Shown: piece by piece, positions 1 through 15,213 of the stretch
Layout: each line of letters begins with the position of its first letter
Numbering within the stretch: the first letter of the stretch is position 1
IMG/VR virus record: IMGVR_UViG_3300045988_159430
Location: 1 to 15,643 of that record
Strand: one strand, 5' to 3'
Length of the DNA: 15,643 nucleotides
From: a virus
The notes under the pieces: model-generated
The model's input: only the letters and a program-made list of their open reading frames with translations
Databases searched by the model: none
What the model was told of the DNA's origin: nothing
Translations under genes and position numbers: made by a program

Positions 1-1479
1 ACTCCAGTCATTGAAGAAAGTAATTGGTTTTTCATTTCCACTAGATGTTATCAAAGTAAATGGTTTCAAATATTCTGGAGATATTATAGTTTTAGAAGTA
101 TTAAATATAATACCATTAGATAGATAATTCTCAGCTACATTATTTAATAGAAACTCTACTCTATCAGTTTCTGGATATTTATAAGCCTTGCCAGCATAAA
201 CCATATCTCCTGCATAATCTAGATGATATTCAATAAAATCTGAACTGATTATCTCATTCCAAACATAATCTTTCCAAATAGGAGATATATCAGATTTAAC
301 AGATTGTGTAATATTAATAGATAAATTAATAATACTTGAACTATTCTTTATAACAGATACTCCAATAGTTGCTTTTCTGGAAGATAATCCTGAATTTTCT
401 GCAATGTTCAAACTAATAGTTGCTACACCTTGAGGATTCACAGTTATCTTCTGTCCACTAATCCAACCTACAGGAATGCTAAATACAACATCATCTAAGT
501 TGTTTGAGCCTGTACCAGTTATATTTAATGTAGATGCAGTTCAACTTACTTCATAATTAGTATTAGGAATCATTAAAGATGTTGCAGCTTGTTTAATTGG
601 AACTGTAGCTTCAAGAGTATAACCTCCAGAAGTTGTTGCAGTAACCATTGCACTAAACTCCAAATTATTAGTAGTTTTATTCTCTGGAACAGTTAATACA
701 AAATAGTTATCAACAATATCCTTTTTAATATTACTAGCTTGAGGGCAGGTGACATTAAATGAGGTAATTGTTTCTTCTGCTTTAGTTGTACTTAAATGGA
801 ATTCTTCAGTAACAAAAGCAGATGCTCCATAAGTTCCAGATGAAGGAGTTACTACTAGCTTTAAATCTTCTGGAGTATTACTTTTTTCAATTTTAAAGCC
901 GTAACTATAACTAATAAATTTATTAGTATCATAATAAGCTCCTAATTGGATAGTTCCAATTAAATCTGTATTTCATTGAGTATTAGCTCTTACTGTAAAT
1001 TTAAACTTAATAGAGCAAGAATCCCAATCCAGAACTTCCATATTAACTAAAGCTGTAGCATTAACAACTGCTGCATTTCATTTAATAATATCTGATCTAT
1101 TTAATATATACTCTACTGTATATTCTCCACCAGTATTTGGTACTTTAATGGTGCCATTAGCAGGATAATATCCAGGAGCTTTACTATGTAAATTAATTGG
1201 TAAATCTTCCTCTAATAAAGCAGTAGTAATGCCTCTAGGATAAAAATGAAATACAGTAGAAGAATCAGTAGTTATTGTTGTAGGAGATAAAAATTGTATT
1301 GTACATCCAGAAGTACTAGGCTCTTGTATAGTTACCTCTAAAGGCCCTTCTTCAGTATAATCATCTCCCCAAGCCCAATAATCATATTCTCCAGTAATTC
1401 CCCATCCAGGATTATTCCATTTAACAGGAAAACTCCTTGATGCGTTATATATTCCTAATTTACTTGGTATAAATGCCAT
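1..1479 (-). CDS. Large structural protein with Ig/BACON-like repeats (tail fibre or receptor-binding candidate); C-terminal end runs off the window
   Basis: ATG at 1477-1479. Track ORF 1078..1479 stops at TGA (tca 1078-1080), but I checked the same frame triplet by triplet to position 1 and found no TAA/TAG, only two more in-frame TGAs (973-975, 541-543). The read-through translation contains ...NYEVSWTASTLNITGTG...VGWISGQKITVNPQGVATISLNIAENSGLSSRKATIGVSV..., which resembles BACON/Ig-like repeats. Product call is by eye only. Confidence 0.8.
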
Positions 1480-1481
1480 TT

Positions 1482-1970
1482 TTAAAAGTTTTTAAATACA
1501 TAATAATCTACTTGTCCTTGAAGATCTTTAGTTATAGCATCATCAAGAAGCTCCATATAGTTATTTTCTATATATTCTATAGTATTTGATAATGGATGTT
1601 TACCTTGAATTCCTTGAAGATGTATCTTCCTCCCAATTAAATATGTAAGCTGATCTATTGTTGGTAACTTACCATTATAAGGTCTGGGAATAATTGGCTT
1701 AGTTTTAATCCAACTCTTTATATCATTAAGTGGAGGGAACTTACCAGAATGTCTGCCTTCTTCAACGTATTTCCAATAATCTAATAAACTAACATTAACT
1801 TCATAATCCCCATTTTGGGTCTCAACAATGTAATTTAAACTATTACCTAATAATCCAGTATCATCAGTCCTTGTTTGAACCAATTCCTGTCTATATAAAG
1901 AAATTATGAGTTCTCCTCAACGTCTTAATAACTCATTTAAATTTGGGAAATTTAGTTCTTGAATATTCAT
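1482..1970 (-). CDS. HK97 gp10-like head-tail / neck structural protein
   Basis: ATG 1968-1970, TAA 1482-1484, 162 aa. Track ORF 1482..1883 is started at a TTG and extends upstream through one in-frame TGA (1917-1919, ...LLRRWGELIISLYRQELVQTR...). The motif DTGLLGNSL...LDYWKYVEEGR resembles the HK97 gp10 family signature. Confidence 0.75.
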
Positions 1971-2013
1971 TTTTGTTAAAATATATTAATTTATAGGTTA
2001 GTATCTAAACACA

Positions 2014-2036
2014 AATAGGGAGACTTACTCCCTATT
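2014..2036 (-). terminator. GC-rich hairpin, candidate intrinsic terminator or leader hairpin next to cassette copy A
   Basis: 9-bp stem AATAGGGAG (2014-2022) / CTCCCTATT (2028-2036) with a 5-nt loop. On the minus strand it is followed by TGTGTTT. It lies between the gene ending at 2092 and the gene starting at 1970. Confidence 0.5.
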
Positions 2037-2040
2037 AAGT

Positions 2041-2089
2041 GTCAAGTTTTTTACTCAAATTTAGTAGTTAAAATAAATAAAAACTGACA
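2041..2089. repeat. 49-bp conserved intergenic cassette, copy A
   Basis: GTCAAGTTTTTTACTCAAATTTAGTAGTTAAAATAAATAAAAACTGACA. The first 28 nt are identical to copy B (7706-7754). The first 17 nt and last 15 nt are identical to copy C (15161-15209). The ends form an imperfect inverted repeat (GTCAAGTTTTT / AAAAACTGAC). Confidence 0.85.
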
Positions 2090-2091
2090 TT

Positions 2092-2876
2092 TTAATGTTT
2101 TCGTTTTCATTCTTCAATTTGTCTATTTTCTTCATTAGCTTTATCTATAACATAACAAATTGTATTTAAGAACTCTTTAATTTGCATATCATAAACTTGA
2201 TGCCAATTAAATTTAGTAACCTCACTTACTTTATCTATTCAGATAATTCAGCTTCATTTTTGAGTAAAAGGAGTAACCGTCTCATCTGTATCAGACTCCT
2301 TAGAATCTTTCTCCTTTCTAATTTGTTCTTTGTTTTCTTCAATTTCTTCTTCATCTCTCTTTCCGAAGAGTGAAGGGTACTCAGAGTTGATAGTCGCAAT
2401 AAGTTTACAAAAAAAAACATTATATCTGAAAATACATCAATTGTTAAATGATTATTCAAAAACTCTGCTTCATCCAAAGGATCATAATCTTCTCCATACT
2501 TCTTACCTTCTGGTAATAAAAAGCAAGCAGCTAGATTTGGCATATAATCATCATACTTCTTATAAAAATTCTGGAAGTCTATGTATTGACTTGCAGTCAT
2601 CTTATTAACATTAAAAAAGACTTTATATTCCCTGTCTCCAATAATATATTTAGTTTCTGGAGTTTTAGGTTTATATGTACTCTCTACAAATTTAAGATTG
2701 TTAATTAATTCTTGTAATTTATTCAGCTCCATATTTTGAATTTCTTCTAAAGAAATATCACTAAGTACAGATACCATAGCTAAATTCATATCTAATTCAT
2801 TTTCTCATTCTTTTCTAATTACATCCAATAGTTTTCTATAATGAGCTAAATTCATTTCATTCCAAGATTTTATCAT
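2092..2876 (-). CDS. Phage protein needing a -1 frame change at a T9 run (tail-assembly-chaperone-like G/GT architecture, or a homopolymer indel); about 261 aa if fused
   Basis: ATG 2874-2876 lies 1 nt after the terL TAG. In-frame TGA at 2805-2807 (...VIRKEWENELD...). Frame 0 is the track ORF 2235..2789 and ends at TAG 2235-2237. After the T9 run (2409-2417) frame 0 turns R/L-rich and uses rare codons. The -1 frame reads CKLIATINSEYPSLFGKRDEEEIEENKEQIRKEKDSK...FNWHQVYDMQIKEFLNTICYVIDKANEENRQIEEWKRKH, is open to TAA 2092-2094, and contains 4 in-frame TGAs (2254, 2248, 2239, 2107). That frame has no start codon of its own: a TAA lies 15 codons upstream of the T run. Confidence 0.6.
2409..2417 (-). 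promoter_or_regulatory. T9 homopolymer (A9 on the plus strand): candidate -1 ribosomal frameshift or transcriptional slippage site
   Basis: Minus strand reads ATG TTT TTT TTT GTA. Re-reading the last T gives TGT AAA CTT..., which is the frame with protein-like composition. A T10 run would fuse the two frames directly. Confidence 0.5.
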
Positions 2877-2877
2877 A

Positions 2878-4125
2878 CTATTTAAATTTAATATTATAAT
2901 GTCCTTTAGTTGTATTTAATGAGTCATAGGCTAGCATTAATGAAATTACTGTATCATCATTAAATCCAGATGGAGCATTATAACTAATATTTCCAGTTTT
3001 TGGATTATATGAAGCTTCATATAGTCTTAACTCATTTAAAAGTTTATCATCTTTTAATAATCCTATCTTTTCATTCTCCAAAGCAGCTTGAAGCTTATTA
3101 ACTATATCTGCCTTACTCTTATTAGTAGTTAAGAATCGTATAATCCTGATTTTCGGATTCTTCTGAACTAACATATCATAGAAGACACTACCAATTGAGT
3201 TTTGTTCAACTTGCACAATCTTTATAAATCCTTGATACTCAGTTAGTATATTTGTTAATAAATCAACTTGCTCTGTTGGAGTTTTATCGTTAAAATACTT
3301 TATAAAGACCATTTGCCCAGATTCATTTAAAGCAGTAACACAAGTATAGTCTTTACCACTCCCAGTAGCCCAGTCTATTCCTATATAAAGACTCTGATAA
3401 TCTGGTTTTTTCTCAATTATGCAATTAGCTATATTATTAAATAAACATCCATCATCATCTGCAAATTCCCCTAAGTATTCGGTTCTAAATTTATTTTTTG
3501 AGGTTGTAAGTCGATACATCTCTAACTTCTCTTTATCTAAAAGCATAGATGTATCTTCTAAAGCTCAATCAAATGATTTATAGAACTTGTCATATTTCGG
3601 ATCTAACCCTTTAGTAAAGCAGTCATAAAAGAAACCCTCTCGGAACCTTGGAGTACTAATAATTAATATTGGAGCAGACCACACATCAGTAGTAGGTTTA
3701 ATAATTTCAAATACTTCATCTTTTAAGTAAGCAGCCTCATCTAATACAAGTAATCCACTTACAGAGAATCCTCGTAACGAATCCATTTGTTCTCCAGATC
3801 TAAATAATATAGAACTGCCATTATTAAACTCTAATTCAAGCAAAGTTTCATTCTTACGTTTAAGAATATCTGCTTCAGCTATAGCATTAACTATTTCTTT
3901 AAACACTTTTCTTGATTGCCCAAGAGTAGGTTCTACTATACAATTGACTGTTTTTGGATAGTTAATTGCAAATCGTAATAATTCATTTTCAGCTAAGAAA
4001 GATTTACCTACTTGTCGTTTAGCTTTAATTGTAAATATCCTTCCAGATCTATAAGCATCTGCCATAGCTATATGAACCTTATATTGGTACATAAATGGCC
4101 TATATCCTTTATATATCCTTGTCAT
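2878..4125 (-). CDS. terL: Terminase large subunit
   Basis: Track ORFs 3565..4125 and 2878..3546 are in the same frame, joined by a single TGA (3565-3567): ...KFYKSFD-W-ALEDTSMLLDKEK.... The N-terminal ATPase has Walker A KAKRQVGKS and Walker B LLVLDEAA. The C-terminal RNaseH-like nuclease begins around LYIGIDWATGSGKDYT. 415 aa, ends at TAG 2878-2880. Confidence 0.9.
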
Positions 4126-4561
4126 TTATAATAGGATCTCCAAATTTAAATTGGCATTCATTATTTTGAATATTAACTTGAATTTCTGGTTGATTTAATC
4201 CAAACATAGAATTTATTGTTTTAATAACCTCAGTAGCAGATCTTACATCATTTTTACTAATAGCAATATCCAACAATGTTTCCAATCTTGTTAATTGTAT
4301 ATGTCTTAAATTCTTTATAAGATTATCGTTTTTATCTGCAATAATCTTATAAGCTTCTCTAATATATTTAGCAGCAGTAGTTTGCCCAACTCCATATTTA
4401 GTTTGAAGTTCCTCACTTACTTTATTTCTGGACCACCCTTTATTAAATAATCTTGCTGCATAAAGATATTTAGTTTTTTGTTCGTCTATTTGATCCTCTT
4501 TTACTTCTTCCTTTTTCGGTCTCCCTATTTTCTTCGGCAGTTCCTGATTCTTTACTTTCAT
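4109..4561 (-). CDS. terS: Terminase small subunit candidate (HTH-containing)
   Basis: 150-aa ORF immediately upstream of terL with a 17-nt overlap. Basic N-terminus followed by an HTH-like segment (YLYAARLFNKGWSRNKVSEELQTKYGVGQTTAAKYIREAYK). Ends at TAA. The call rests on position plus the HTH. Confidence 0.65.
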   Translation of the reverse strand: MKVKNQELPKKIGRPKKEEVKEDQIDEQKTKYLYAARLFNKGWSRNKVSEELQTKYGVGQTTAAKYIREAYKIIADKNDNLIKNLRHIQLTRLETLLDIAISKNDVRSATEVIKTINSMFGLNQPEIQVNIQNNECQFKFGDPIINDKDI

Positions 4562-4805
4562 TTTCCTTTAGTTTTTCTTGATATTCAAAATAGATTGGGG
4601 CAATCCTCTTTATAAGATTAAGTATACAAGTAGCACAAGCTACGCTCATTCTATATTCTTGTTCAATTAAATATTCATAAATCTCTTTAAGCTTAATTAC
4701 ATCCTGCTTTTGTACATTTCTGCAATAATTAGACTTAGTTGCAGTTACAAATCTATCTTCAAATCCTCTTAAATATTTAAACTGCTCTTCTGTTAATTGT
4801 TTCAT
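4470..4805 (-). CDS. Hypothetical protein
   Basis: 111-aa ORF, ATG 4803-4805, TAA 4470-4472. The last 92 nt overlap the terS start in a different frame. The N-terminal 80 aa look like a normal globular protein. No recognisable motif. Confidence 0.6.
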   Translation of the reverse strand: MKQLTEEQFKYLRGFEDRFVTATKSNYCRNVQKQDVIKLKEIYEYLIEQEYRMSVACATCILNLIKRIAPIYFEYQEKLKENESKESGTAEENRETEKGRSKRGSNRRTKN

Positions 4806-4807
4806 AA

Positions 4808-4882
4808 TTAGCGCTTTTTAGTATAAGTAAATATAGAAATTAACTTTCCATTCTTGTAGTGATAAATAACTTCTGTTTCCAT
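4808..4882 (-). CDS. Very small ORF (24 aa), uncertain
   Basis: ATG 4880-4882 lies 12 nt after the upstream stop. TAA 4808-4810 lies 2 nt before the next ATG (4805). Peptide METEVIYHYKNGKLISIFTYTKKR. Supported only by the tight spacing. Confidence 0.2.
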   Translation of the reverse strand: METEVIYHYKNGKLISIFTYTKKR

Positions 4883-4894
4883 AAAATATAATTT

Positions 4895-5224
4895 TTAATT
4901 AATAAGTTTGTATATAACATCTATCAGCTTAGTAGATGCATCTTTTAATAATATCATAATATCTTTAATAATTGGAGTCATAAATGCTAATAGTGCAATA
5001 TACCCAACCATTAAAATTGAAAATTGACTTGTAATAAGAATATATATTAATCCAATTCACCAAGTCATACATAAACTGCAATCTAAAGGTTTTAGTCTTC
5101 AATCTTCTTTATAAGGTATACCTTTAAATAGTCTTTTTCAAATACTGTGTTTAAAACTATCCAAAGCCCCAGATAAATCAATTATAAAGACTATTATTAC
5201 TGCTATTATAAATAATTCTAACAT
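4895..5224 (-). CDS. Small integral membrane protein (about 3 TM segments)
   Basis: Not in the ORF track because of 3 in-frame TGAs (5138-5140, 5099-5101, 5057-5059). ATG 5222-5224, TAA 4895-4897, 109 aa: MLELFIIAVIIVFIIDLSGALDSFKHSIWKRLFKGIPYKEDWRLKPLDCSLCMTWWIGLIYILITSQFSILMVGYIALLAFMTPIIKD.... The C-x2-C...WW membrane motif resembles DUF1360-type proteins (by eye). Confidence 0.7.
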
Positions 5225-5463
5225 AATCTCTCTCTTATTTGTTTAATAAATCTTTGAATTGTAGTATGACTAATTCCTAATATTCTTCCCACTTCTCTAT
5301 AACTGTGATATTCAGCATATAATATGATTACTGTCTTATCTGCCTTATTAAGCTCAAGTCATTTTGGATATATACTTAATAGTCTATCATCCATATTTGT
5401 AAACATACTATAGTCTATTTCATACTCAGTAAGTAAATCGTCAATATTAATCTTCCGTTTCAT
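5218..5463 (-). CDS. Sigma-70 region 4-like protein (C-terminal half of an ECF-type sigma factor, as a separate ORF)
   Basis: Not in the ORF track (in-frame TGA 5359-5361). ATG 5461-5463 is immediately preceded by an in-frame TAA. Ends at TAG 5218-5220, 81 aa: MKRKINIDDLLTEYEIDYSMFTNMDDRLLSIYPKWLELNKADKTVIILYAEYHSYREVGRILGISHTTIQRFIKQIRERLC. This matches the region 4 pattern L--L----r-v--L-----s--EIa--lgis--TV--r---a---L. Confidence 0.65.
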
Positions 5464-5755
5464 TTAATCAATCCTCCAATTCGTCATTTTGTTGTTCAAG
5501 TGGTTCTTTAACAATCTCATAATATTTCTTATAGGTATAGTAATATCTACTTGTTTTACTAAACCAATAATTCTTAAATAATCTTGTAATCCAAAATTTC
5601 AATTCATTTTTGCTATCAAGCTGATTTAATTTTGGATTTGAATACTCTAGTATTTCTACAAAAATCATTTGAACACAGTCATCATCTGCACCAAATTTTT
5701 GCTTAAGTTCCATAATAAATGGATAGTACTTTTCTACAATTTCGTTATTACTCAT
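5447..5755 (-). CDS. Sigma-70 region 2-like protein (N-terminal half of an ECF-type sigma factor, as a separate ORF)
   Basis: Track ORF 5468..5755 ends at TGA 5468-5470. Under TGA=Trp it extends 7 codons (WLNETED) to TAA 5447-5449. ...GADDDCVQMIFVEILEYSNPKLNQLDSKNELKFWITRLFKNYWFSKTSRYY... fits the ECF region 2 pattern (D-vQ--F--l ... -Wl--i--N-----R). Confidence 0.6.
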
Positions 5756-6242
5756 ATGTTCACATATATCCTCCTGCTGTTTTTCGCTGCCCTTTAAGAA
5801 CCTTTACAATATTTCTAGATTGTATATTTAGTTCTCTCTCAGCATCTATTGCTGAATCCCATCTTTTAATAACTATTCCATTTAGTAATTGCAGTATTGG
5901 TTTCTTATGACTATATCCAGCTCGCAGATTATGAGTTCCATAATTATTATTATAATTATAAGTACACCATTCTAAATTACTTACATTATTATTTGATTTA
6001 TTTTCATCCTTATGATTTATACAAGGATAGTTATTCGGATTAGATATAAAAGTTTCAGCTACTAATCTATGTATATAACACTTCTTTTTCAAATTTTTAT
6101 TATATAATGTTACTGTAAAGTACCCATTAGTTTTTACTTGAGGTTTTAACCTCTTTGGAACTGATGCTCTTAAACTTCATATTGAGCCATCAGTTCCAAT
6201 TTGGTAGTTTTCAAAATTAAGTATTCTTTTATAGGCTATCAT
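5748..6242 (-). CDS. HNH homing endonuclease (NUMOD4-like N-terminus, HNH core, IENR1/NUMOD1-like C-terminal HTH)
   Basis: Track ORF 5760..6092 is TTG-started and TGA-ended. The same frame extends upstream through TGA 6177-6179 to ATG 6240-6242 (MIAYKRILNFENYQIGTDGSIWSLRASVPKRLKPQVKTNGYFTVTLYNKN...). It extends downstream through TGA 5760-5762 to TAA 5748-5750 (...RKTAGGYM-W-TYE). HNH core: HRLVAETFISNPNNYPCINHKDENKSNNNVSNLEWCT. Confidence 0.9.
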
Positions 6243-6666
6243 TTGCTATATAATTACTAAATTCTGTATTTACATCTATCTTAATGGCTTTCTTTAAAGA
6301 CAACTCTGTTTTTAATGAATAGCCATAAGTTCCTCCAAAATCTGTTGTAGAACAACCATATTTCATAGAATCCTTTATAAAGGCTTGTTTTATATCTTTA
6401 AATATATATACTCCATCATCAAATATTATTACTAATATAGAATTATTTCTTGATAGCATATCAAATTTATCCCTATTAATAATAGTGGTTGGATATTTAT
6501 TAGAATTAAATCTTCTCCTTTTAACTTCAATTATATAATCAATTCCATTCCAATTAAATGTTCCATCATATCTGGAGTAATCGTCTTTACATCATTCTAT
6601 GTCTATATTAAATTTCTCTTTAAATAGATTCTTTGTAAAGACTAAGCTTCTTATATCTGTTTTCAT
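6229..6666 (-). CDS. Hypothetical protein, possible PD-(D/E)XK-fold nuclease
   Basis: Track ORF 6229..6459 extends upstream in frame through TGA 6592-6594 to ATG 6664-6666, which forms a TAATG overlap with the upstream gene. 145 aa. ...SRYDGTFNWNGIDYIIEVKRRR... gives a D-x14-E-x-K arrangement. The function call is weak. Confidence 0.6.
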
Positions 6667-6905
6667 TATTTTATATTATTAATTTTAAGTGTTAAATCAC
6701 AATATTCTTCATATAAATTAGATACTTCTTCACTTGCTGGATTAATCCACATTACTGAATCTAATTTATGTTTTAATTCTGCTCTTTCTAATCTTAATTC
6801 AAATGTTTTATGTTGTCTTTCCTGATAGACTTCATTTACTCTAAAACCTGCAACAATTGAAGATGCAATTAAAAGACCAACTAAAATTTTATTTATTTTT
6901 TTCAT
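6666..6905 (-). CDS. Small protein with an N-terminal signal-anchor/TM segment; first gene of the leftward operon
   Basis: 79-aa ORF, ATG 6903-6905, TAA 6666-6668. N-terminus MKKINKILVGLLIASSIVAGF. It sits about 40 nt downstream of a consensus promoter. Confidence 0.7.
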   Translation of the reverse strand: MKKINKILVGLLIASSIVAGFRVNEVYQERQHKTFELRLERAELKHKLDSVMWINPASEEVSNLYEEYCDLTLKINNIK

Positions 6906-6942
6906 AATTTTATTATTTATAAGTTAATACTTGTTTATTATT

Positions 6943-7000
6943 GTACTACAAAGATAATACATTTTTATTCAATTTCCAAATTTTTTAGGTATTATTTTTA
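6943..7000 (-). repeat. Left arm of a 58-bp inverted repeat (promoter duplication)
   Basis: The reverse complement TAAAAATAATACCTAAAAAATTTGGAAATTGAATAAAAATGTATTATCTTTGTAGTAC aligns without gaps to 7590-7647, with about 48 of 58 identical. The last 17 nt are nearly perfect. Confidence 0.8.
6949..6980 (-). promoter_or_regulatory. Bacteroidota-type promoter driving the leftward operon
   Basis: Minus strand: TTTG (6980-6977), a 20-nt spacer, then TATCTTTG (6956-6949). This matches the Bacteroides -33 TTTG / -7 TAnnTTTG consensus. Confidence 0.6.
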
Positions 7001-7056
7001 TTATTTTCAAAAAAATATTACTATTTGTATTTTTATTATATATTAATAAAAACAAT

Positions 7057-7542
7057 ATGATTTACGTAATTAAATTAACTAAAACGAATTTTATTAAAGT
7101 TGGTTACACTACTAATATAAGTGGCAGACTAACTGCTTATAAAAATACTATTCCAAATGAGATGATAGAATTTTTTATAGCAAAAGAAGGAAATAGAGAT
7201 GATGAAAATTATTATAGAGATAAATATAGAGCATATAAAACTAAGAGTAATTCAGAATGGTTAAAACTTCCAGATGAATTAATTGTAGAGCTATTAGCAG
7301 ATTTTAAGAGTGCAAATAATATAAAAATAAATAAACAAAGCAAAAAAGAATGATATAATGAGAATATAGATAAATTAGTAGAATTGTGCTTATCTGGAGT
7401 ATCATTAAATAGAGCTGCAATTCAATTAAATGCACTAAATTGAGACTGAATAAAATATGCTAATCAAAGATACGAAAAAGAGAATGGCAAAAAATTAACA
7501 AAACTTTGGGTAAGAAAAATCAAGAAAAGTTTTGCAGAATAA
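7057..7542 (+). CDS. T5orf172-domain (GIY-YIG superfamily) protein with a C-terminal HTH-like domain
   Basis: Track ORF 7057..7353 ends at TGA. The same frame continues through TGAs at 7351-7353, 7441-7443 and 7447-7449 to TAA 7540-7542, 161 aa. N-terminus: IYVIKLTKTNFIKVGYTTNISGRLTAYKNT...SEWLKLPDE (T5orf172 pattern). C-terminus: WYNENIDKLVELCLSGVSLNRAAIQLNALNWDWIKYANQRYEKENGKKLTKLWVRKIKKSFAE. Confidence 0.8.
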
Positions 7543-7561
7543 AAATTTATTATTATATTTG
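7531..7561 (+). promoter_or_regulatory. Bacteroidota-type promoter (P1)
   Basis: TTTG 7531-7534, a 19-nt spacer, then TATATTTG 7554-7561. It overlaps the 3' end of the T5orf172 gene. Confidence 0.55.
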
Positions 7562-7589
7562 TAGTGTAAAGAAAAAAATAATTTTTTAT

Positions 7590-7647
7590 TAAAAATAATA
7601 CCCGAATTATTTGGAAATTTAATTTTTATGTATTATCTTTGTAGTAT
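7590..7647 (+). repeat. Right arm of the 58-bp inverted repeat (promoter duplication)
   Basis: TAAAAATAATACCCGAATTATTTGGAAATTTAATTTTTATGTATTATCTTTGTAGTAT is the inverted copy of 6943-7000. Confidence 0.8.
7610..7641 (+). promoter_or_regulatory. Bacteroidota-type promoter (P2), rightward twin of the leftward promoter
   Basis: TTTG 7610-7613, a 20-nt spacer, then TATCTTTG 7634-7641. Confidence 0.6.
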
Positions 7648-7669
7648 GAAACTAAAACTAATAATTCTA

Positions 7670-7695
7670 GGCAGGTGAAAATCCTGCCACTTTTT
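7670..7695 (+). terminator. Intrinsic terminator-like hairpin with T tract
   Basis: GGCAGG (7670-7675), loop TGAAAAT, CCTGCC (7683-7688), then AC TTTTT (7691-7695). It lies only about 30 nt downstream of the predicted P2 start site. Confidence 0.6.
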
Positions 7696-7705
7696 GAATC
7701 TTACT

Positions 7706-7754
7706 GTCAAGTTTTTTACTCAAATTTAGTAGTAAGAAAATAAAAATATTGACA
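7706..7754. repeat. 49-bp conserved intergenic cassette, copy B
   Basis: GTCAAGTTTTTTACTCAAATTTAGTAGTAAGAAAATAAAAATATTGACA. Same absolute orientation as copies A and C. It ends 30 nt before the helicase ATG (7785). Confidence 0.85.
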
Positions 7755-7784
7755 AAAACTTTAACTATTTAAATTATTAAAATT

Positions 7785-9506
7785 ATGAAAACATATTTAA
7801 ACAATTTGATTAATGAGTTGCCAACTAACTGTTTATTTGATAAAGGAAAAGTTGGATGTGGAGGAACTTCAATGGCAATTGAATGTAATAAGCCTTATGT
7901 TATTTGTGTTCCATTTACTAGCTTAGTTGAAAATAAACTTCAACAATATCCAAATGAAAGACGTACTGAGAAGATATTTGGAGTTTATGCTGGAGTTACT
8001 ATTAAAGAGATTAAAGATTACGTAGAGAGTGTTAAATGTCCTAAAATTATTGTTACATATAACTCACTTCCAAAAGTTATTTCTGCAGTTAATACTAAAG
8101 AATATAGTTTATTAGTAGATGAATATCATATACTATTTAATCAGTATAGCTTTAGAAAGGATGCTATTAAACCTGTTTTAGAGAACTATGAATTATTTAA
8201 AGATTTTACATTTATGACTGCTACTCCTCTTGAAGAAGAGTTTGTATTAGATGAATTAAAAGATTTAGAATTAGTAAAGCAAGAATGGGATGATGTTATT
8301 GAAACCAAGGTACAAGCCGTTAAATGTAAGAATGTTGAAGCTTCAACTATTAAATTAATTAATGCTGTTCTTAATAATCAAGTCGAAGGTAATGTTTATA
8401 TATTTGTAAATTCTGTAGACTTTATAAAGAATCTTATTCAGAAAGCTAAACTTACAGAAGAGAATACCAGAGTTATATATTCCAAAAACAATAAAACCAA
8501 ATTATCAATTCATAATTCTACAGTATTAGATGAACCTAAGAAAATAAATTTATTAACTTCTACAGTATTTGAAGGTTCTGATATTTATGATGAAAATGGA
8601 AGAATTGTAGTAGTAAGTGATGCTCAAAAAGCACAAACTCTTCTTGACATCTCAACTTCAATCCAACAGATTGCTGGCAGAATTAGAAATAGTAAATATT
8701 TAAACTGGATAACTCATCTTTACTCAGCAACAAGATATGCAGATATTAGTTATGAAGACTTTAAAAAGAAGAATATCCAGAATATTGAGGAAACTAAGAT
8801 TGCTGTAGATGCTTACAATGCAATGCCTGAAGTTGCAAGAAAGAAACTTAAAGAATTTACATCTGATACTTATATCCAAGTAAATGATGATTTTACATTT
8901 ACATTTGATCCAAATATGGCTAAGGTAGATATTTTTAACTTTAAAGTGACAAGAGGTTTATATTCTATTAGAACGAATCTTAATAAAGAATATATAAAGA
9001 ACGGATTTAAAAAAGTAGTAGAATGTGAAGACAACTCTATTAAGATTGATTTTGAATCTGATAATAAACCATTTAAAGAACTAATTAAAGAAGTTAGAAC
9101 AGAATGGGAAAATAAATTTAAACTGAATACTCCACTCTTAAATGATGCTATTATTAAATATCCTTGGTTACCAGAAGCTATTAGTAAATTAGGATTCGAA
9201 AAGATGGCAAGCTTGAAATATTGCATTTCGGATATTAAAGATGCTCTATTAAAGAAATCAAATAAAAGTGCAGATAATAAAGCAGCTAAGAAGTTAAATC
9301 AATCAATTACTCTTGGAATGTGGTATTCTAACGCTGATATTAAAAAGTTTGTTAAAGAAGCTTATGAAATTAGTGATATTACTATTACTCCAAAAGCAAC
9401 AGAAATTGATAAATATTATGAAGTTAAAAAATGCCAGAAAAGAGTAAATGGTAAACAAACTGAAGGTTATGTAATTATTAATAAAAAGTTTGTATTTAAT
9501 AAATAA
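7785..9506 (+). CDS. Superfamily 2 (DExH-type) helicase, replication/early module
   Basis: 573-aa intact ORF ending at TAA. Motif I GKVGCGGTS, motif II LLVDEYH, motif III MTATP, motif VI QQIAGRIRN. No in-frame TGA; it has 5 TGG Trp codons. Confidence 0.85.
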   Translation: MKTYLNNLINELPTNCLFDKGKVGCGGTSMAIECNKPYVICVPFTSLVENKLQQYPNERRTEKIFGVYAGVTIKEIKDYVESVKCPKIIVTYNSLPKVISAVNTKEYSLLVDEYHILFNQYSFRKDAIKPVLENYELFKDFTFMTATPLEEEFVLDELKDLELVKQEWDDVIETKVQAVKCKNVEASTIKLINAVLNNQVEGNVYIFVNSVDFIKNLIQKAKLTEENTRVIYSKNNKTKLSIHNSTVLDEPKKINLLTSTVFEGSDIYDENGRIVVVSDAQKAQTLLDISTSIQQIAGRIRNSKYLNWITHLYSATRYADISYEDFKKKNIQNIEETKIAVDAYNAMPEVARKKLKEFTSDTYIQVNDDFTFTFDPNMAKVDIFNFKVTRGLYSIRTNLNKEYIKNGFKKVVECEDNSIKIDFESDNKPFKELIKEVRTEWENKFKLNTPLLNDAIIKYPWLPEAISKLGFEKMASLKYCISDIKDALLKKSNKSADNKAAKKLNQSITLGMWYSNADIKKFVKEAYEISDITITPKATEIDKYYEVKKCQKRVNGKQTEGYVIINKKFVFNK

Positions 9507-9520
9507 AAATATTATATTTG
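9489..9520 (+). promoter_or_regulatory. Bacteroidota-type promoter (P3) inside the 3' end of the helicase gene
   Basis: TTTG 9489-9492, a 20-nt spacer, then TATATTTG 9513-9520. The next ATG (9525) is only 4 nt downstream, which implies a leaderless or near-leaderless mRNA. Confidence 0.55.
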
Positions 9521-9524
9521 TGAT

Positions 9525-9686
9525 ATGGAAGGAGATATTAAAGAAACAATTAAACAAACAGAAGAGTATATTAAAGAATTGGATAAATGAATACTTGAGT
9601 GTAAAGAAGCTACTAAAAGATTTGGTGATATTATAGATAAAGTATTAAAAAATAAAGATTATATGTTTATTTCTAAATTTGATTAA
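9525..9686 (+). CDS. Small hypothetical protein (53 aa)
   Basis: ATG 9525, in-frame TGA 9588-9590, TAA 9684-9686: MEGDIKETIKQTEEYIKELDKWILECKEATKRFGDIIDKVLKNKDYMFISKFD. Absent from the ORF track because of the TGA. Followed 2 nt later by the next ATG. Confidence 0.5.
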
Positions 9687-9688
9687 TT

Positions 9689-9829
9689 ATGGATGATTAT
9701 TTATTTAAAAAGCTTGAAGAACTAGAATACAGAATAGTTCAACTAGAAAACCAGAATAGAGGTTTAGTTTGGGAAGAAGTAGAAGAAATGCCAAAACCAG
9801 AAATTCCTAATGTAACATATACTGACTAA
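9689..9829 (+). CDS. Small hypothetical protein (46 aa)
   Basis: ATG 9689, TAA 9827-9829: MDDYLFKKLEELEYRIVQLENQNRGLVWEEVEEMPKPEIPNVTYTD. Coiled-coil-like. Tightly packed, with 1 nt before the next ATG. Confidence 0.5.
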   Translation: MDDYLFKKLEELEYRIVQLENQNRGLVWEEVEEMPKPEIPNVTYTD

Positions 9830-9830
9830 T

Positions 9831-9974
9831 ATGAAATATCAAACCTATAAAGTATGCATAAATGGAGTGTATTATGTATATGTAATACCAGAAAATAGTA
9901 GGTTTTTAGTGGACTTACAAACAGGAGATTTAATACCTAAAGAAGATGATAAATTATTTGAAATGATGGAATAA
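9831..9974 (+). CDS. Small hypothetical protein (47 aa)
   Basis: ATG 9831, TAA 9972-9974: MKYQTYKVCINGVYYVYVIPENSRFLVDLQTGDLIPKEDDKLFEMME. Last gene before the convergent terminator. Confidence 0.5.
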   Translation: MKYQTYKVCINGVYYVYVIPENSRFLVDLQTGDLIPKEDDKLFEMME

Positions 9975-9979
9975 ATGAA

Positions 9980-10005
9980 AATAGGAGGGCATAAACCCTC
10001 CTATT
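9980..10005. terminator. Bidirectional intrinsic terminator between convergent modules
   Basis: 10-bp stem AATAGGAGGG (9980-9989) / CCCTCCTATT (9996-10005) with loop CATAAA. T-rich tracts follow on both strands (TTCTGTTT on plus, TTTTCATTT on minus). It sits between the plus-strand stop at 9974 and the minus-strand stop at 10011. Confidence 0.7.
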
Positions 10006-10010
10006 TCTGT

Positions 10011-10580
10011 TTAAGCGTATTTTCAAATGTATCCTTTAGATGTTTGCTTTAATCCACTACATACTCTACTAATGGCTCCTCTATCAGTTCCTACTGCATT
10101 AGCCGCTTCAGTACAGCTTTCATATTCCTTAATAAAGTTTCCCTCTAAATCATATTGTAAAACCTTTTTACATCTTTTCTTATTATGAATTTCATTACTA
10201 ATCTTCCAAGGCAAACTATATAAATGTTTCTTACCTTTATTTGATTCTGATAGTTTCTTTCTTCATTCTGTAGAAAATTTTATTCCATAGTTGCCACCTT
10301 CACCTCCTGGCTTCAAGTTTAAACACATTGGATCTACTTCCCATTTATCTCCTATTAATTCATACTCCTTTTTAGATAATTCATCTGAATCATTACAGAA
10401 TGCAATTATTTCTTTTTTATATGCATTAGGAAATCTTTTATAGTAGTTCTTAATAATTTTACCAGAACCTTTATATGGATCTTTATATGGGTCTTTTCCT
10501 TTATAAATACGCTTACCAATGTAATATTTTCCTCTCAATGAGCCAGCAGTTAAATAAATTTTATAACAATAGTAAAACAT
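10011..10580 (-). CDS. GIY-YIG homing endonuclease (GIY-YIG core, NUMOD3-like linker, IENR1/NUMOD1-like HTH)
   Basis: Track ORFs 10263..10580 and 10023..10214 are in the same frame, joined by TGA 10263-10265 (...GIKFSTE-W-RKKLSESNKGKKHLYSLPWK...). The second ORF ends at TGA 10023-10025 and continues to TAA 10011-10013 (...TSKGYI-W-KYA). Core: YCYKIY...GKYYIGKR...EYELIG...CLNLKPGGEGG. 189 aa. TAATG overlap with the endolysin stop. Confidence 0.9.
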
Positions 10581-11032
10581 TATATAATTGTAAATTTCTG
10601 TCTTCTCTGCAAACCCTCTTTATTCTTCAGTCCTAAATGAATTCAACTAGCTATTCCATTTCTAGGTTTCTCATAAATAAGTTGATCAAAATCATACTTT
10701 TCAATAGCTTCAGTAATCCAAACCTGAAATTCTTTCATTTGGCCGTTACTTGGAATTATATCTGCTGCATATCCTGTTAGATGGGCAGATGTCAAAGATC
10801 CTCCTACAGCTTTATTAAGCTCATTACATCTATAACCTGAATTCACACTTATTGCTGGATTCCCCAACCGATTAACATCACAATACTCTGCCCAATCACT
10901 TCTTAATGGGTCTAAAAGTTTCTCGACTAACTCTATAAGGTGTTCAGTAATCTCTTTATTTGGAGTATTATCTATCTTCTTAATAGAAGCTGTATCAGAT
11001 CTTGTTAATTCACTAATAGTAAAATATTTCAT
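10580..11032 (-). CDS. Endolysin, peptidase M15 family (zinc D-Ala-D-Ala carboxypeptidase / L-Ala-D-Glu peptidase-like)
   Basis: Track ORF 10643..11032 ends at TGA 10643-10645 and continues to TAA 10580-10582 (...PRNGIAS-W-IHLGLKNKEGLQRRQKFTII). Motifs SGYRCNELNKAVGGSLTSAHLTGYAADI are typical of M15 peptidases. 150 aa. Confidence 0.9.
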
Positions 11033-11193
11033 TATTTAATAATATCTTTAAGCATAGTATAACGGTAAAATAAATGACATCCTGCACCAAGTGCTATGAG
11101 TACTAATGTAATCCAAAATGGAATTACTTTTACCATTAAAAATACTAAGATTATAATTACTATTGCTATTAAATATTTCATCCAATATTTCAT
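11032..11193 (-). CDS. Holin candidate (53 aa, two TM segments)
   Basis: ATG 11191-11193 (alternative ATG 11179-11181). TAA 11032-11034 forms a TAATG overlap with the endolysin start. MKYWMKYLIAIVIIILVFLMVKVIPFWITLVLIALGAGCHLFYRYTMLKDIIK. Too short for the ORF track. The call rests on position and topology only. Confidence 0.6.
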   Translation of the reverse strand: MKYWMKYLIAIVIIILVFLMVKVIPFWITLVLIALGAGCHLFYRYTMLKDIIK

Positions 11194-11196
11194 AAC

Positions 11197-11850
11197 TTAT
11201 TTATTTAAAATTATACTTACTTTAATTCCTGCATCTCTTAGTTTTACTCAAGTATCAACTGGCATCTCATTATCACAATAAGATAAGCCTAAAATTCCAA
11301 TATCTCTATCTTCTGATTTTAAATAGAATATTGCAATCTTATTAACATCATTAGATTTAAATGAATAATACATTCTTCTATCTAATTCCTTTATATCTTC
11401 AACATCTCCAAATCATCCTCCTTTTTTAGATGTTTCCAATATAAATAAATAATCAGATAATAGGAAGTCTTTATAGTGACTTGAAACTGGAGCAACTCCA
11501 GGTTCTGTTTCTTCACTATTCATAATTCCATAAGTGAATGGTAATCCTCCTAATCCTGAAGTGCCATTATGATACTCAATAACTCAAGCTCTATCTGCAT
11601 TCGTATCATTTAAAAGGTCTTTAAGGATATATCTAACCTTAAGATCCGCTTCTTGTCGTATTACTTGATTAGTATTATGAACTGTTTCTATATAACTTAC
11701 AACTTTATCATATATTATTCCTGGATTAGTACTTATAATTATTACATAAGAAATAAATATAAATCCAAATCCACCTTTAATTATTTTCCACAGTCCATAT
11801 TTATCTACTCATTCTAATACCTTTCCAAACCAGTTTAATTTATTTTCCAT
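11197..11850 (-). CDS. Membrane-anchored protein of unknown function, first gene of the lysis cluster
   Basis: Absent from the ORF track: 4 in-frame TGAs (11809-11811, 11584-11586, 11413-11415, 11248-11250). I translated every codon from ATG 11848-11850 to TAA 11197-11199, 217 aa: MENKLNWFGKVLEWVDKYGLWKIIKGGFGFIFISYVIIISTNPG...DRAWVIEYHNGTSGLGGLPFTYG...KKGGWFGDVEDIKELD...MPVDTWVKLRDAGIKVSIILNK. One N-terminal TM segment. Confidence 0.7.
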
Positions 11851-12275
11851 TACATATTATCAGAACAAGTACCCAGAGTGTTGTCTACAGCTAAATCAAC
11901 TCTAACAAATACTCCAGTACAAATATCTTTGAACTTCTGATAAAATGGAGTAAAAATTAAAGGATAAGAAATATCAACTTCTGGATATTGGTTATTAAAT
12001 CGGTTAATTATATTAGTTAATGCTAATATTCCAGCTGATTGCTCTTCAAGCTGATTATTATCAGTCTCATCCCATCTTGCTATAAAATAGAGATTTAAAG
12101 AGTAAGTAATAGTATCCTCATCCATATTAAATGTATTTGGAGTTATATAAAATACATTATATTCAATAGTTGGGATACTATTAAGTTCATATATATCCTT
12201 ACTTCCTACAAAATTAATATTGGGTTCTTCAAGAGCACAAGCTTTTAAATTGTTTATTAATTCAAAATACGTCAT
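11850..12275 (-). CDS. Hypothetical structural (neck/tail-completion?) protein
   Basis: Track ORF 11850..12377 overlaps the upstream gene by about 100 nt. The internal ATG 12273-12275 (MTYFELINNLK...) lies 1 nt after the upstream TAA and is the more likely start. 141 aa, ends at TAA 11850-11852. Confidence 0.65.
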   Translation of the reverse strand: MTYFELINNLKACALEEPNINFVGSKDIYELNSIPTIEYNVFYITPNTFNMDEDTITYSLNLYFIARWDETDNNQLEEQSAGILALTNIINRFNNQYPEVDISYPLIFTPFYQKFKDICTGVFVRVDLAVDNTLGTCSDNM

Positions 12276-12276
12276 T

Positions 12277-12954
12277 TTACTTACTCTTTTTATTGTTATC
12301 ACTTGAAGGGAAATCATAAGCTCTTTGCAGAGGACCTTCACAAGAATTATATCTCCAACCTTTACCTCTAGCTCCACCTAACCAAATAGTGCAAGATGAA
12401 CTTGAATACATATTTGGATACATATCTTTAAGAGGTTTATAAGAATACAATTCAGGAAAATCATTATAATATGTAATTACCCAATTTTGCAATCTAGTTT
12501 TAAAGAAATCTGCTTTATCTCTATAATACTTCTTAATAAGATTAACTTGATTAATATCAGAAGTTAAATCTTTCTCATCATCAGTCCTCATAACCCCAAA
12601 ATTACTCAGCTTAAATGAGATGGGTATAGTAATCTCACTTAATACTTGATAAAGTAAATAAGGCTGAATATAGTAATCTAGCAATTCTTTATATCTATGA
12701 TTTTCTGGGTCATCTATTGAAGTAGGATCATAAATAGGAGGTTCTATTGGATGAACTGGTTTATTTGGATCTTTTCAATCAATTACTAATTTCTGAATCT
12801 TTTCTAAGAGCTTAGTTCCAATTAATGACTGAAGCTCAATATCTTGTGCAAGTTTAATTGCTGACTGAAGATATTTACCAGAAACATTATTGTCTAAATT
12901 GGATTCTGATTTTATATAATCTTCAGATATTAATAGTACATTTCTATATTCCAT
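12277..12954 (-). CDS. Head-tail connector / adaptor-like protein (gp6-like N-terminus)
   Basis: Track ORF 12277..12684 is TTG-started and extends upstream through TGA 12775-12777 to ATG 12952-12954: MEYRNVLLISEDYIKSESNLDNNVSGKYLQSAIKLAQDIELQSLIGTKLLEKIQKLVIDWKDPNKP.... This N-terminal pattern resembles head-tail connector proteins. 225 aa, ends at TAA. Confidence 0.7.
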
Positions 12955-13597
12955 AATAATATTTATAATTTTTGCAGGGTTTATTTTTTCTACAAGATCT
13001 AGATATACTAGAAGAATCTACATTATTCTTCTCTCCAGCTTCCTTAGCTGATTTATACTCACAAATAAAATTACCATCTAAATCATACTTATATACTTTT
13101 TTGCACTGACGTTCTGAAATTAGTTGTTTTTCTTTATCTGAGAGTTTCATACCTTTATTTCAAGGAGTTTTGCCTAATCTTGCCTCCCTCATTTTACGCT
13201 TGCTTTCATCTGAATGCTGTTTACCATAAAATGAGTTATTTTCTCCTGATCTTATAATTCTAAGACTATCTTTATAATCTTGTGAAAAAGAATATCCACA
13301 AGTACCGTCTCCTCCATCAGTTAAATTATACCCATATTTTGGATTTCTAGTATTATACTTATAAATCAGAATCTTTTCTAAAGTCTTAGCACAAGCTTCT
13401 GGAAGATTATCTCTAATTATAATATGCTCAAAATTATCTCAACCATATTTTTTAATTGCTCTGCTAAAATAAAGATTATTCTTGTAACCTTGACCTTTAG
13501 TTCCCCATCTATTATTTAAAGTAAGTGATGTTATTCCAAAATATAATTTATTATCAGCTATATTCTTATGGCAGTACACTGTATAATTATTCAACAT
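12944..13597 (-). CDS. GIY-YIG homing endonuclease inserted between the portal and connector genes
   Basis: Track ORF 12944..13150 is only the C-terminal HTH. The same frame continues upstream through TGAs 13160-13162 and 13439-13441 to ATG 13595-13597. 217 aa: MLNNYTVYCHKNIADNKLYFGITSLTLNNRWGTKGQGYKNNLYFSRAIKKYG-W-DNFEHIIIRDNLPEACAKTLEKILIYKYNTRNPKYGYNLTDGGDG...ENNSFYGKQHSDESKRKMREARLGKTP-W-NKGMKLSDKEK.... Ends at TAG 12944-12946. Confidence 0.9.
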
Positions 13598-14678
13598 TTT
13601 CTGCATTGTCTGACATTCCTTTTGGAGTTAAACTAAATGGTTCAATAGTAATACTATTCTTAATGCCGAAGATTTTATCAAATGAGTCACAAATTTCTGA
13701 TTGTATTGGGCGTACAAAAGTACGATTATATAGCTTAAATGCTTCATTAAACTCATTTTCATTAAATCCTGAGCTATAGTTTAAACCGAACAACGAAGGA
13801 TTAGCTCTGAAGGCACAGAATATTTGATCTCTGGTTCTCTCAGATAATGATTGATATTTCTCATCAAAATCATCAGAATCTAATCTTTCAATAGTAGTCT
13901 TATTTGCCTCATCTGCATTATATGAAATCAATATTCTGCCAGCATTCTGATAACCAGAGAACTTCTCATTAATATTCCTCTCAATCTCCTCTCTAATTTC
14001 ATCTGTAGGTTCCCCATTATTAAAGTTAATAATAAGATTACCCATAAATCCATTATTGATGTTATTTAAATGGAATTCATTAATATTTTTCTCAGTTTCA
14101 CAAGATAAAATAGCAGCTCCATAAACAGGAATAGGATATACTCCTCTTGTTATATAACCTTTATTATAAAATATACTAGCTGGATTTTCATCCCCAGCTC
14201 CAAATTTTGGATATTTTATAGCTTTTACAGACCAAGCTGTCCAATCAGTTGCATAATATAATATATCATTCTTTTCGCTTGACCTTACATTCATAAAATC
14301 AATATGATATATCTCTGCAACTCTTCCGAGCATATCTCTAATTACTTGGATAGCATAACCTCCAAATATCATCTTATCAATAGTGATTTTTCTCATTATA
14401 TCAACTATTGTTTCACCTTTCTTGTTTACAACTACTTCAAATCCTGGAGCATTACATTTAACATCGTTACCAACAATAAAGTCAGCAGAACCATTAATAA
14501 TGGATTGGAGAGTGGCAACATTTAAATATAAATCCCATAGATATAATGGATATTTGTTATCTTCTCCCCACATTACATAATCTTTTCCCCTCACTTTAGT
14601 TTCTGTAGGTAATACGATATTACTTGCAATAAATGGATCAATAGCACTTAACTGAACTTTTGTTTTATTTTCGCTCAT
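13587..14678 (-). CDS. Portal protein
   Basis: 363-aa intact ORF (ATG 14676-14678, TAA 13587-13589). ...YVMWGEDNKYPLYLWDLYLNVATLQSIINGSADFIVG..., GGYAIQVIRDMLGRVAEIYHIDFMNVR, NNGFMGNLIINFNNGEPTDEIREEIERNINEKFSGYQNAGRILISY...DEKYQSLSERTRDQIFCAFRANPSLFGL match the Phage_portal / PBSX-type portal pattern by eye. Confidence 0.85.
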   Translation of the reverse strand: MSENKTKVQLSAIDPFIASNIVLPTETKVRGKDYVMWGEDNKYPLYLWDLYLNVATLQSIINGSADFIVGNDVKCNAPGFEVVVNKKGETIVDIMRKITIDKMIFGGYAIQVIRDMLGRVAEIYHIDFMNVRSSEKNDILYYATDWTAWSVKAIKYPKFGAGDENPASIFYNKGYITRGVYPIPVYGAAILSCETEKNINEFHLNNINNGFMGNLIINFNNGEPTDEIREEIERNINEKFSGYQNAGRILISYNADEANKTTIERLDSDDFDEKYQSLSERTRDQIFCAFRANPSLFGLNYSSGFNENEFNEAFKLYNRTFVRPIQSEICDSFDKIFGIKNSITIEPFSLTPKGMSDNAENVE

Positions 14679-15057
14679 AACTTACGTATGTATTAGGTTT
14701 GTCGTATTGATAATTATTATTCTCATAATCTCCAATTCTTATTAATCCTGTTCCCAATATAGGTATTGGTTTACCAGCAACTAATATCTGAGTACCATTA
14801 GTAAGAGTATTATTATATGTAACCAGAATAACTGGATTGCCATATAACTCTGATCTAAATGGATTGTTTACATCAACTATAACTTGAAATTTATTTGGAT
14901 TAGTAAATAAAATATATTGATATTCACCGTCTCTCATTCCTTCTTGAAGTGTAATATCAAACTTATAGTAGATATTCTCAGAATAATTCTGATTTTCAAG
15001 ATTAAATGTATAAACTTCTTTAGTAGTTGTATTTTGCATTAATAAAGTATAATTCAT
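14665..15057 (-). CDS. Hypothetical protein upstream of the portal gene
   Basis: 130-aa intact ORF, ATG 15055-15057, TAA 14665-14667, with a 14-nt overlap with the portal start. First gene downstream of cassette copy C. No recognisable motif. Confidence 0.7.
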   Translation of the reverse strand: MNYTLLMQNTTTKEVYTFNLENQNYSENIYYKFDITLQEGMRDGEYQYILFTNPNKFQVIVDVNNPFRSELYGNPVILVTYNNTLTNGTQILVAGKPIPILGTGLIRIGDYENNNYQYDKPNTYVSYERK

Positions 15058-15132
15058 ATTTTACAGCAATTTACATTAGTTTTACATATCTTTTTCTTAA
15101 AATATAAACCAATTTACTAATGTATTAAAATA

Positions 15133-15160
15133 ATTAAAGGAGACCTAAGCCTCCTTTAAT
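15133..15160 (-). terminator. GC-containing hairpin abutting cassette copy C (candidate terminator or leader hairpin)
   Basis: 10-bp stem ATTAAAGGAG (15133-15142) / CTCCTTTAAT (15151-15160) with an 8-nt loop. On the minus strand it is followed by TTATTTTAAT. Confidence 0.5.
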
Positions 15161-15209: not shown

Positions 15210-15213
15210 AAAA

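Follow-up and report, generated by a model that had tools for sequence, protein, structure and literature searches.

A phage sigma factor probably encoded as two overlapping genes

Two overlapping genes read in genetic code 4

The stretch of viral DNA analysed here, which we call the window, comprises positions 1 to 15,643 of IMG/VR record IMGVR_UViG_3300045988_159430 and has a G+C content of 27.8%. Its minus strand carries two small genes, r2 (5447..5755) and r4 (5218..5463), which overlap by 17 nt. The 102-aa product of r2 is a sigma-2-like protein by its match to sigma profiles, and in the 81-aa product of r4 the first 36 residues form a conserved segment, after which comes a sigma-4-type helix-turn-helix (HTH). 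Sigma factors are almost always single chains, in which a linker threads through RNA polymerase. We consider it probable, with good though incomplete confidence, that r2 and r4 together encode a two-domain phage factor of the sigma-70 family, similar to the extracytoplasmic function (ECF) type, that has been fissioned into a sigma-2 and a sigma-4 polypeptide.

Both genes belong to a single minus-strand array, headed by a divergent intergenic region at 6906-7056. The initial annotation of this DNA had listed the two open reading frames (ORFs) and their peptides at these positions. They are confirmed, on the minus strand, with the qualification that they exist only under genetic code 4, in which TGA encodes tryptophan. 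With translation table 11, r2 shortens to 95 aa (5468..5755), stopping at the TGA at 5468-5470 that otherwise specifies Trp96, its one TGA-encoded residue. Under the same table r4 is not an ORF, owing to an in-frame TGA at codon 35 (5359..5361, minus strand). This codon lies upstream of the HTH and specifies Trp35, which is invariant in the r4 alignment (A2).

The same code holds for the rest of the window. Tight gene packing appears only when TGA is read as Trp, and the window ORFs contain 30 in-frame TGA against 45 TGG codons, with sense TGA in genes of both strands. All complete ORFs terminate at TAA or TAG, never at TGA. TGA is an ordinary Trp codon across the window, and the host itself probably reads it in this way. 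Scans for tRNA and suppressor tRNA genes found none in the window or in the loci of ten relatives (about 6-20 kb each), no Rfam family was matched in the window, and a scan of species-representative genomes with the r2 alignment found no prophage. Public gene calls made with the standard code shorten some of the proteins concerned, giving 58-aa r4 fragments, a large terminase subunit (TerL) in pieces in locus L006, and a protein (P0019) that ends in 'ELED'.

The overlap (5447..5463, minus strand) reads GAT TGA TTA AAT GAA in the r2 frame. The r4 ATG (5461-5463) lies inside the r2 Asn-Glu codons (AAT GAA), which places r4 in the +1 frame, and a TAA directly 5' of this ATG closes the r4 frame. 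All of this is as first described, except that the overlap open to frameshifting spans 17 nt rather than 3-4 nt. A Shine-Dalgarno-like GGAGG (5473..5477, minus strand) is located 9 nt upstream of the r4 ATG, within the r2 codons Leu-Glu-Asp. The motifs preceding r2 and r4 are the two strongest of this type in the window, where most genes have none.

The TGA in this junction invited a link to stop-codon recoding, which is tempting but wrong and is removed here. It had been suggested that, under host decoding, r2 stops at this TGA and the ribosome could re-initiate at the r4 ATG. In that case r4 would be cut at codon 35, before the HTH. Because of this in-frame TGA, the r4 ORF as originally drawn already presupposes that TGA is Trp. 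Standard decoding cannot yield a working pair, because r4 needs TGA to be read as Trp at the invariant Trp35 ahead of the HTH. Nor is the junction built on a special recoded stop: its TGA is one of 30 ordinary Trp codons, and three phages that use the standard code (L016, L055 and L056) are split too.

Homology to the two halves of a sigma factor

Part of the evidence for a sigma factor comes from the way in which the two proteins share one model. TIGR02937, the NCBIfam sigma70-ECF model, has 165 positions and a curated cutoff of 42.9 bits. r2 matches positions 4-104 (E=8e-4, 19.0 bits) and r4 matches positions 117-161 (E=2.4e-5, 24.0 bits). These matches are complementary and colinear, and joining the halves raises the score: the r2+r4 concatenate matches positions 4-161 with E=4.2e-10 and 39.5 bits, just below the cutoff. 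The concatenate also matches PHROG sigma family 1740 over both halves. All five NCBIfam matches of r2 are sigma models, and some JGI records label r4 relatives 'RNA polymerase specialized sigma subunit'. Profile searches support the sigma identities proposed in the initial annotation in part: r4 passes Pfam Sigma70_r4_2 marginally (26.5 bits, gathering score 25.7), but r2 has no Pfam match and the concatenate stays under the TIGR02937 cutoff.

The r2 protein belongs to a large family. An exhaustive profile search retrieved 471 representative clusters at E<=1e-3, mostly of about 100 aa. Among the 150 best r2-family members, 17 match Pfam Sigma70_r2, which is by far the commonest Pfam match there. 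Within this set, 112 of the 150 are region-2-only proteins with a tight size of about 100 aa and a median tail of 24 residues, and roughly one tenth are longer (156-245 aa) and have a C-terminal HTH. The 120 r4-family matches listed are without exception 58-95 aa long. Both alignments contain many invariant positions, and column identity averages 73% for r2 and 72% for r4. The r2 motifs DDCxQ (ECF 'DLxQ') and ELKxWIxRxxKN (ECF 'WLxxIxxN') are invariant or nearly so, and the conserved N-terminal segment of r4 reads KINIDxLLxEYxxDxxxF...KW.

In an AlphaFold2 model of r2, four helices are predicted with confidence and succeed one another as in an ECF sigma-2 domain, with block means of the predicted local distance difference test (pLDDT) of 87-96 over residues 1-60, followed by a low-confidence acidic C-terminal tail of about 30 aa. 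When this model was searched against BFVD with Foldseek, it matched only uncharacterised phage proteins of fused length.

Single-chain relatives connect the two halves. r2 matches the N terminus of the fused 156-aa protein P0035 (7e-13), whose C terminus is 40% identical to r4 over 42 residues. Nine of ten fused proteins match TIGR02937 end to end, at 21-36 bits and so under its cutoff, and the r2/r4 sigma family is a divergent one. The AlphaFold model of P0035 has a pLDDT of 90. Of the 50 best PDB matches that Foldseek gave for it, almost all are sigma factors, mostly aligned over the full length, and they include sigma-32, SigB, SigH, sigma-A, FliA, WhiG, SigK, RpoE, SigW, SigL and BldN, together with the isolated sigma-4 domains of SigC and SigD. 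The fold evidence is drawn from this homologue and not from the window proteins. r2 corresponds by homology to the N-terminal half, and r4 to the C-terminal half, of single-chain relatives with a sigma fold, and it is because of the complementary colinear matches, the fused relatives and the sigma-like fold of the latter that we assign the pair as a sigma factor.

Several results weigh against this assignment. Taken alone, r2 has no match in Pfam, its profiles (A1 and the 150-member A3) find no sigma factor in sequence searches of the PDB, and Foldseek of its model against the PDB returns nothing at E<1. The best Pfam match of r4 is the generic HTH_50 (1e-7), which outscores Sigma70_r4_2, and its best PDB sequence match is the HTH of TyrR. 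The window pair reaches no curated sigma threshold except the marginal Sigma70_r4_2 match of r4, the TIGR02937 scores of the pair and of its fused relatives are sub-threshold, and the Foldseek E-values of P0035 are each weak, at 0.18 or worse. No cognate promoter for r2/r4 could be assigned.

These points would fit proteins that are not sigma factors, with r4 as an HTH activator that works with the host sigma factor, in the style of RinA, ArpU or LtrC, or as a DNA-binding packaging accessory, and r2 as an unrelated helical partner. We hold this to be unlikely, though it is the most serious of the alternatives. It does not account for two proteins that occupy complementary, colinear parts of one sigma model and score higher when joined, nor for an r2 whose five NCBIfam matches are all sigma models and in whose family Sigma70_r2 is the commonest Pfam match. 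The single-chain homologues of both halves are predicted to fold like sigma factors, and no RinA, ArpU or LtrC family was matched in PHROGs, Pfam or NCBIfam.

The split among relatives and the surrounding genes

We compared 55 sources, comprising the window and 54 fetched loci from independent metagenome and virome assemblies, in which the halves were classified by hidden Markov models of each half. The factor is split into two genes in 53 of these. In 48, the window included, the genes overlap with r4 in the +1 frame, by 17, 26, 29, 50 or 14 nt. In five the halves are separated by a complete HNH endonuclease gene (139 aa) and a TAG stop, and the remaining two (L015 and L054) carry a fused single gene. 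The original proposal that the sigma-2-like and sigma-4-like modules reside on two separate polypeptides is upheld by this conservation and by the loci in which an HNH gene intervenes.

The arrangement extends to distant phages. L016 (41% G+C), L055 (26%) and L056 (33%, with an integrase) use the standard code, carry a split r2/r4 with a +1 overlap, and have r2 proteins that are only about 33-35% identical to that of the window. Their block consists of a nuclease-like gene, r2, r4, a membrane protein with a PFDCxLC motif, a small Cys-rich protein and a gene resembling that of the small terminase subunit (TerS). In L015 the single fused gene lies between the same flanking genes as the split block. 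Judged from this comparison of loci, the split goes far beyond chance and is a genuine, ancient feature that many related phages share. The nearest neighbours of the fused members are split, and the distribution suggests more than one fission or fusion event, a count made without a tree, since trees on about 80 residues would be weak.

Single-base indels are common in purine-rich stretches and the split lies in one, so that an assembly or sequencing error, or the decay of a formerly intact sigma gene into a pseudogene, might be suspected. We regard this as so improbable as to be negligible. An r4 protein identical to that of the window occurs in 874 blocks of the collection, in 477 of which the longest carrying contig is 20-50 kb, and the split recurs in nearly all sources with several junction classes. 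Both halves are conserved, and most members of the r2 family are region-2-only proteins of uniform length. None of the relatives has an indel by which the locus would become a single ORF.

Junction classes vary in both length and sequence and share no slippery or stimulatory motif. Conservation of the junction had been proposed as a comparison to make: the split and the +1 offset are kept in most relatives, the HNH loci being split but different in frame, but the junction TGA is missing from several classes. The GGAGG-type Shine-Dalgarno motif before r4 is missing from the other classes as well. What all overlapping classes have in common is an r4 ATG set within an xAT-GAx codon pair (Asn, Asp or Tyr, then Glu) of the acidic r2 tail. 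r4 is always in the +1 frame because such pairs create an ATG only in that frame, and an acidic linker in r2 therefore readily supplies a +1 start. The r4 protein keeps its own ATG at the conserved N terminus everywhere. The simplest reading is that r4 is translated by independent initiation, probably coupled to termination of r2.

Programmed +1 frameshifting within the 17-nt overlap would instead produce a fused sigma factor of about 183 aa and would make the two ORFs a recoding device. The constancy of the +1 frame in every overlapping arrangement, including the distant standard-code relatives, would be expected of such a device, but it is explained more simply by the xAT GAx codon pairs. 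Fused relatives of similar total length do exist. In the five loci with an HNH gene and a TAG between the halves, however, r4 lies in another relative frame and fusion is impossible, and both the variable junctions, which hold no conserved slippery or stimulatory sequence, and the persistent r4 start codon argue against slippage. We therefore consider frameshifting very unlikely and retain two separately initiated polypeptides.

Homing endonuclease genes are frequent around the pair. In the window an HNH/NUMOD endonuclease gene, identified by Pfam and PHROG matches, lies directly upstream of r2 (5748..6242, minus strand) and overlaps the r2 start by 8 nt. It is missing from this site in many relatives (L001 and L018 lack it, L019 has it), and the HNH gene occupies different places in different relatives, ahead of r2, after r4 or between the two, so that endonuclease genes flank the pair on either side in different relatives. 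The split predates HNH insertion. An endonuclease gene is missing between the halves of most split loci, so that the endonuclease exploits the r2/r4 junction rather than demonstrably creating it. The five loci with a free-standing HNH gene exactly between the halves of one functional unit recall genes in pieces that arise through insertion of a homing endonuclease, as is reportedly the case for the ribonucleotide reductase of Aeromonas phage Aeh1, split by mobE.

Where HNH genes are inserted, the r2 tail and the C terminus of r4 are altered, and variants of r2 and r4 are found in different pairings, which suggests gene conversion around the sigma genes. In a 1189-nt metagenome contig corresponding to window positions 5447-6242, the first 40 HNH residues are joined to a complete r2 in a 157-aa protein (P0001), which by sequence is an internal deletion of the endonuclease gene. 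The window contains three NUMOD-bearing genes within 15.6 kb (5748-6242, 10011-10580 and 12944-13606), and further HNH-type genes are found at 6350-6769 in L011 and 10544-11098 in L002.

Downstream of r4 the gene order is fixed. A conserved 109-aa membrane protein with a PLDCSLCMTWW motif (4895..5224, minus strand; synteny in L015, L016, L055 and L056) always follows r4 or the fused gene. Its signature is PxDCxLCMxxWxGL. In split relatives whose loci are long enough, the next gene encodes a small protein with a conserved C..C motif (4470-4805 in the window), and the order persists even in the remotest relatives. Neither protein matched any family. A 150-aa gene at 4109..4561 (minus strand) is placed in the TerS position by location only, having no profile matches. 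It is followed by TerL (2878..4125, minus strand), which matches Terminase_6N and Terminase_6C and lies 1.1 kb downstream of r4. r2 and r4 (r4 end at 5218) are situated directly upstream of the terS-terL slot.

PHROGs gave no annotation for the flanking proteins of 145, 109, 111, 150, 79, 573 and 213 aa. In the phage GenBank collection, a DNA search matched only the neighbouring HNH gene and a protein search with the r2+r4 concatenate had no match. Near-identical copies of the phage, which is about 30 kb long, are present in L019 (a 198,436-bp scaffold, at about 171-191 kb) and L029 (a 148,631-bp IMG/VR contig), in both cases near the ends of far longer contigs. They may be integrated prophages or mis-joins.

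Proposed function, putative promoters and known systems

The divergent intergenic region at the head of the r2/r4 operon (6906..7056) contains a conserved extended -10-like sequence, TGTATTAT. This is part of a repeated motif, AAAATTTGGAAATTGAATAAAAATGTATTATCTTTGTAGTA, found at 6906-7056 in minus orientation and again at 7543-7784 in plus orientation, upstream of the plus-strand gene for the 573-aa protein. The motif is conserved in the 64%-identity relative L008 (4803-4864 and 5264-5325), and the two copies look like a pair of host-type early promoters.

A second conserved element of about 55 nt (TTTGTCAGTTTTTATTTTTTCTTACTACTAAATTTGAGTAAAAAACTTGACA; TTA.TAC…AAAAAACTTGACA) occurs three times in minus orientation, at 2040-2095, 7705-7760 and 15160-15213. 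The three copies have the 18-mer TGAGTAAAAAACTTGACA in exact form (chance expectation 0.05), and after each comes a GC-rich hairpin, different in every case. Structural-gene blocks follow two of the copies, and the third lies between two plus-strand genes, facing the opposite way towards the r2/r4 operon. Diverged copies in L013, L022 and L048 keep GTTTTTATTT, TTA.TAC and an A-run followed by TTGACA. The element could be a late promoter or another regulatory site. Read as a -35/-10 pair in several registers, it gave no convincing promoter.

We propose the following model for the pair. r4 would be made from its own ATG, probably by coupling to r2 termination, so that the two proteins would be produced in roughly equal quantity. 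r2 would bind the beta-prime clamp helices of RNA polymerase and read the -10 element, and r4 would bind the beta flap and read the -35 element. The acidic tail of r2 and the conserved N-terminal 36 residues of r4 may replace the broken linker between sigma-2 and sigma-4. Together the two proteins would redirect the RNA polymerase of the host to the genes for packaging and structure that begin immediately downstream, of which the packaging genes (2878..4561) are the presumed first targets. The factor thus probably serves late genes. Polymerase binding and promoter choice by the pair are predictions.

Two-subunit sigma factors are already an established concept. The initial annotation had named SigO-RsoA (YvrI-YvrHa) of Bacillus subtilis as the known precedent. 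It is indeed a two-subunit sigma factor, with sigma-4 and sigma-2 on separate proteins (PMC8103513, PMC7826278), but it is not the only precedent, since gp55/gp33 of phage T4 is explicitly called a split sigma (PMC2988020). Like the phage pair, SigO-RsoA consists of sigma-2 and sigma-4 polypeptides encoded together. SigO-RsoA, however, is host-encoded and controls a small stress regulon, and its operon is written yvrI-yvrHa (PMC8103513), so that the sigma-4 protein SigO comes first. In the phage pair sigma-2 comes first, colinear with a normal sigma factor, the genes overlap in the +1 frame, and fused orthologues fill the syntenic slot in some relatives. The NCBIfam matches included no family specific to SigO or RsoA, and no direct pairwise comparison was made.

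In T4, a small sigma-2-like protein and a second protein, placed at the beta-flap site of sigma-4, act jointly on the host RNA polymerase (PMC2988020). The second protein, gp33, is unrelated to sigma-4 in sequence, has no part in reading DNA and depends on the sliding clamp gp45. A -35 element is lacking in T4 late promoters, and genes 33 and 55, which are distant from each other and under separate regulation, are not known in a naturally fused form (PMC2988020). In contrast, the r4 protein described here is a sigma-4-type HTH, the genes overlap, and fused relatives exist. A PHROG search matched no gp55 or gp33 family. An analogy to gp33/gp34 of phage SPO1 was considered and dropped, as current work has gp33 as a sigma-A-dependent transcription inhibitor and gp34 as a complete late sigma factor.

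Single-chain ECF-like phage sigma factors (P0035, L054 and Xpf) likewise combine sigma-2 and sigma-4, in 156-199 aa compared with 183 aa for the pair. P0035 has the same flanking genes as the split pair, and the fused relatives match TIGR02937 as the split pair does. In these proteins, however, the domains are covalently linked, whereas the split forms have the acidic r2 tail and an N-terminal r4 segment (EYxxDxxxF) that is largely missing from the fused forms. Xpf is the sigma-2/sigma-4 'positive control factor' of the prophage PBSX (PMC10141391), and r4 matches the Xpf-type model NF005385 only weakly (E=0.015).

In other phages of Gram-positive bacteria, the slot of the pair is filled by late activators, RinA among them, and by the sigma-like Xpf of PBSX. 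RinA-type activators act on a promoter upstream of terS (PMC3152322). RinA, ArpU and LtrC resemble the pair in occupying the slot directly upstream of terS-terL and in their presumed role as a switch for packaging and structural genes, and differ from it in being single proteins.

A colinear, overlapping pair with fused orthologues in the same slot differs from both SigO-RsoA and T4 gp55/gp33. We found no description of a colinear split phage sigma factor in the searchable literature, whose coverage is incomplete, so that this is an absence of evidence only. The natural exceptions found to the single-chain rule, SigO-RsoA and T4 gp55/gp33, are each a special case. In the phages described here, the gene at this orthologous position may be fused or divided into a colinear pair, and across a large phage family the divided state is more frequent. 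Such a family is a natural experiment on the need for a sigma linker, on how half-sigmas meet on the polymerase and on whether halves mix, and is relevant to engineered split and chimeric ECF sigma factors. For annotation, small region-2-only and HTH-only phage genes beside terminase genes may be the two halves of a sigma factor.

A broader possibility, which we offer tentatively and do not favour over narrower readings, is that r2 and r4 belong to an extensive, ancient clade of phage sigma factors that normally act as non-covalent sigma-2 and sigma-4 heterodimers, with repeated fission and fusion and with halves exchanged independently. If true, this clade would span hundreds of 50%-identity clusters and both the standard and the TGA=Trp codes. 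The halves that read the -10 and -35 elements would then swap by recombination and by gene conversion driven by homing endonucleases, and the clade would constitute a natural modular system for evolving promoter specificity.

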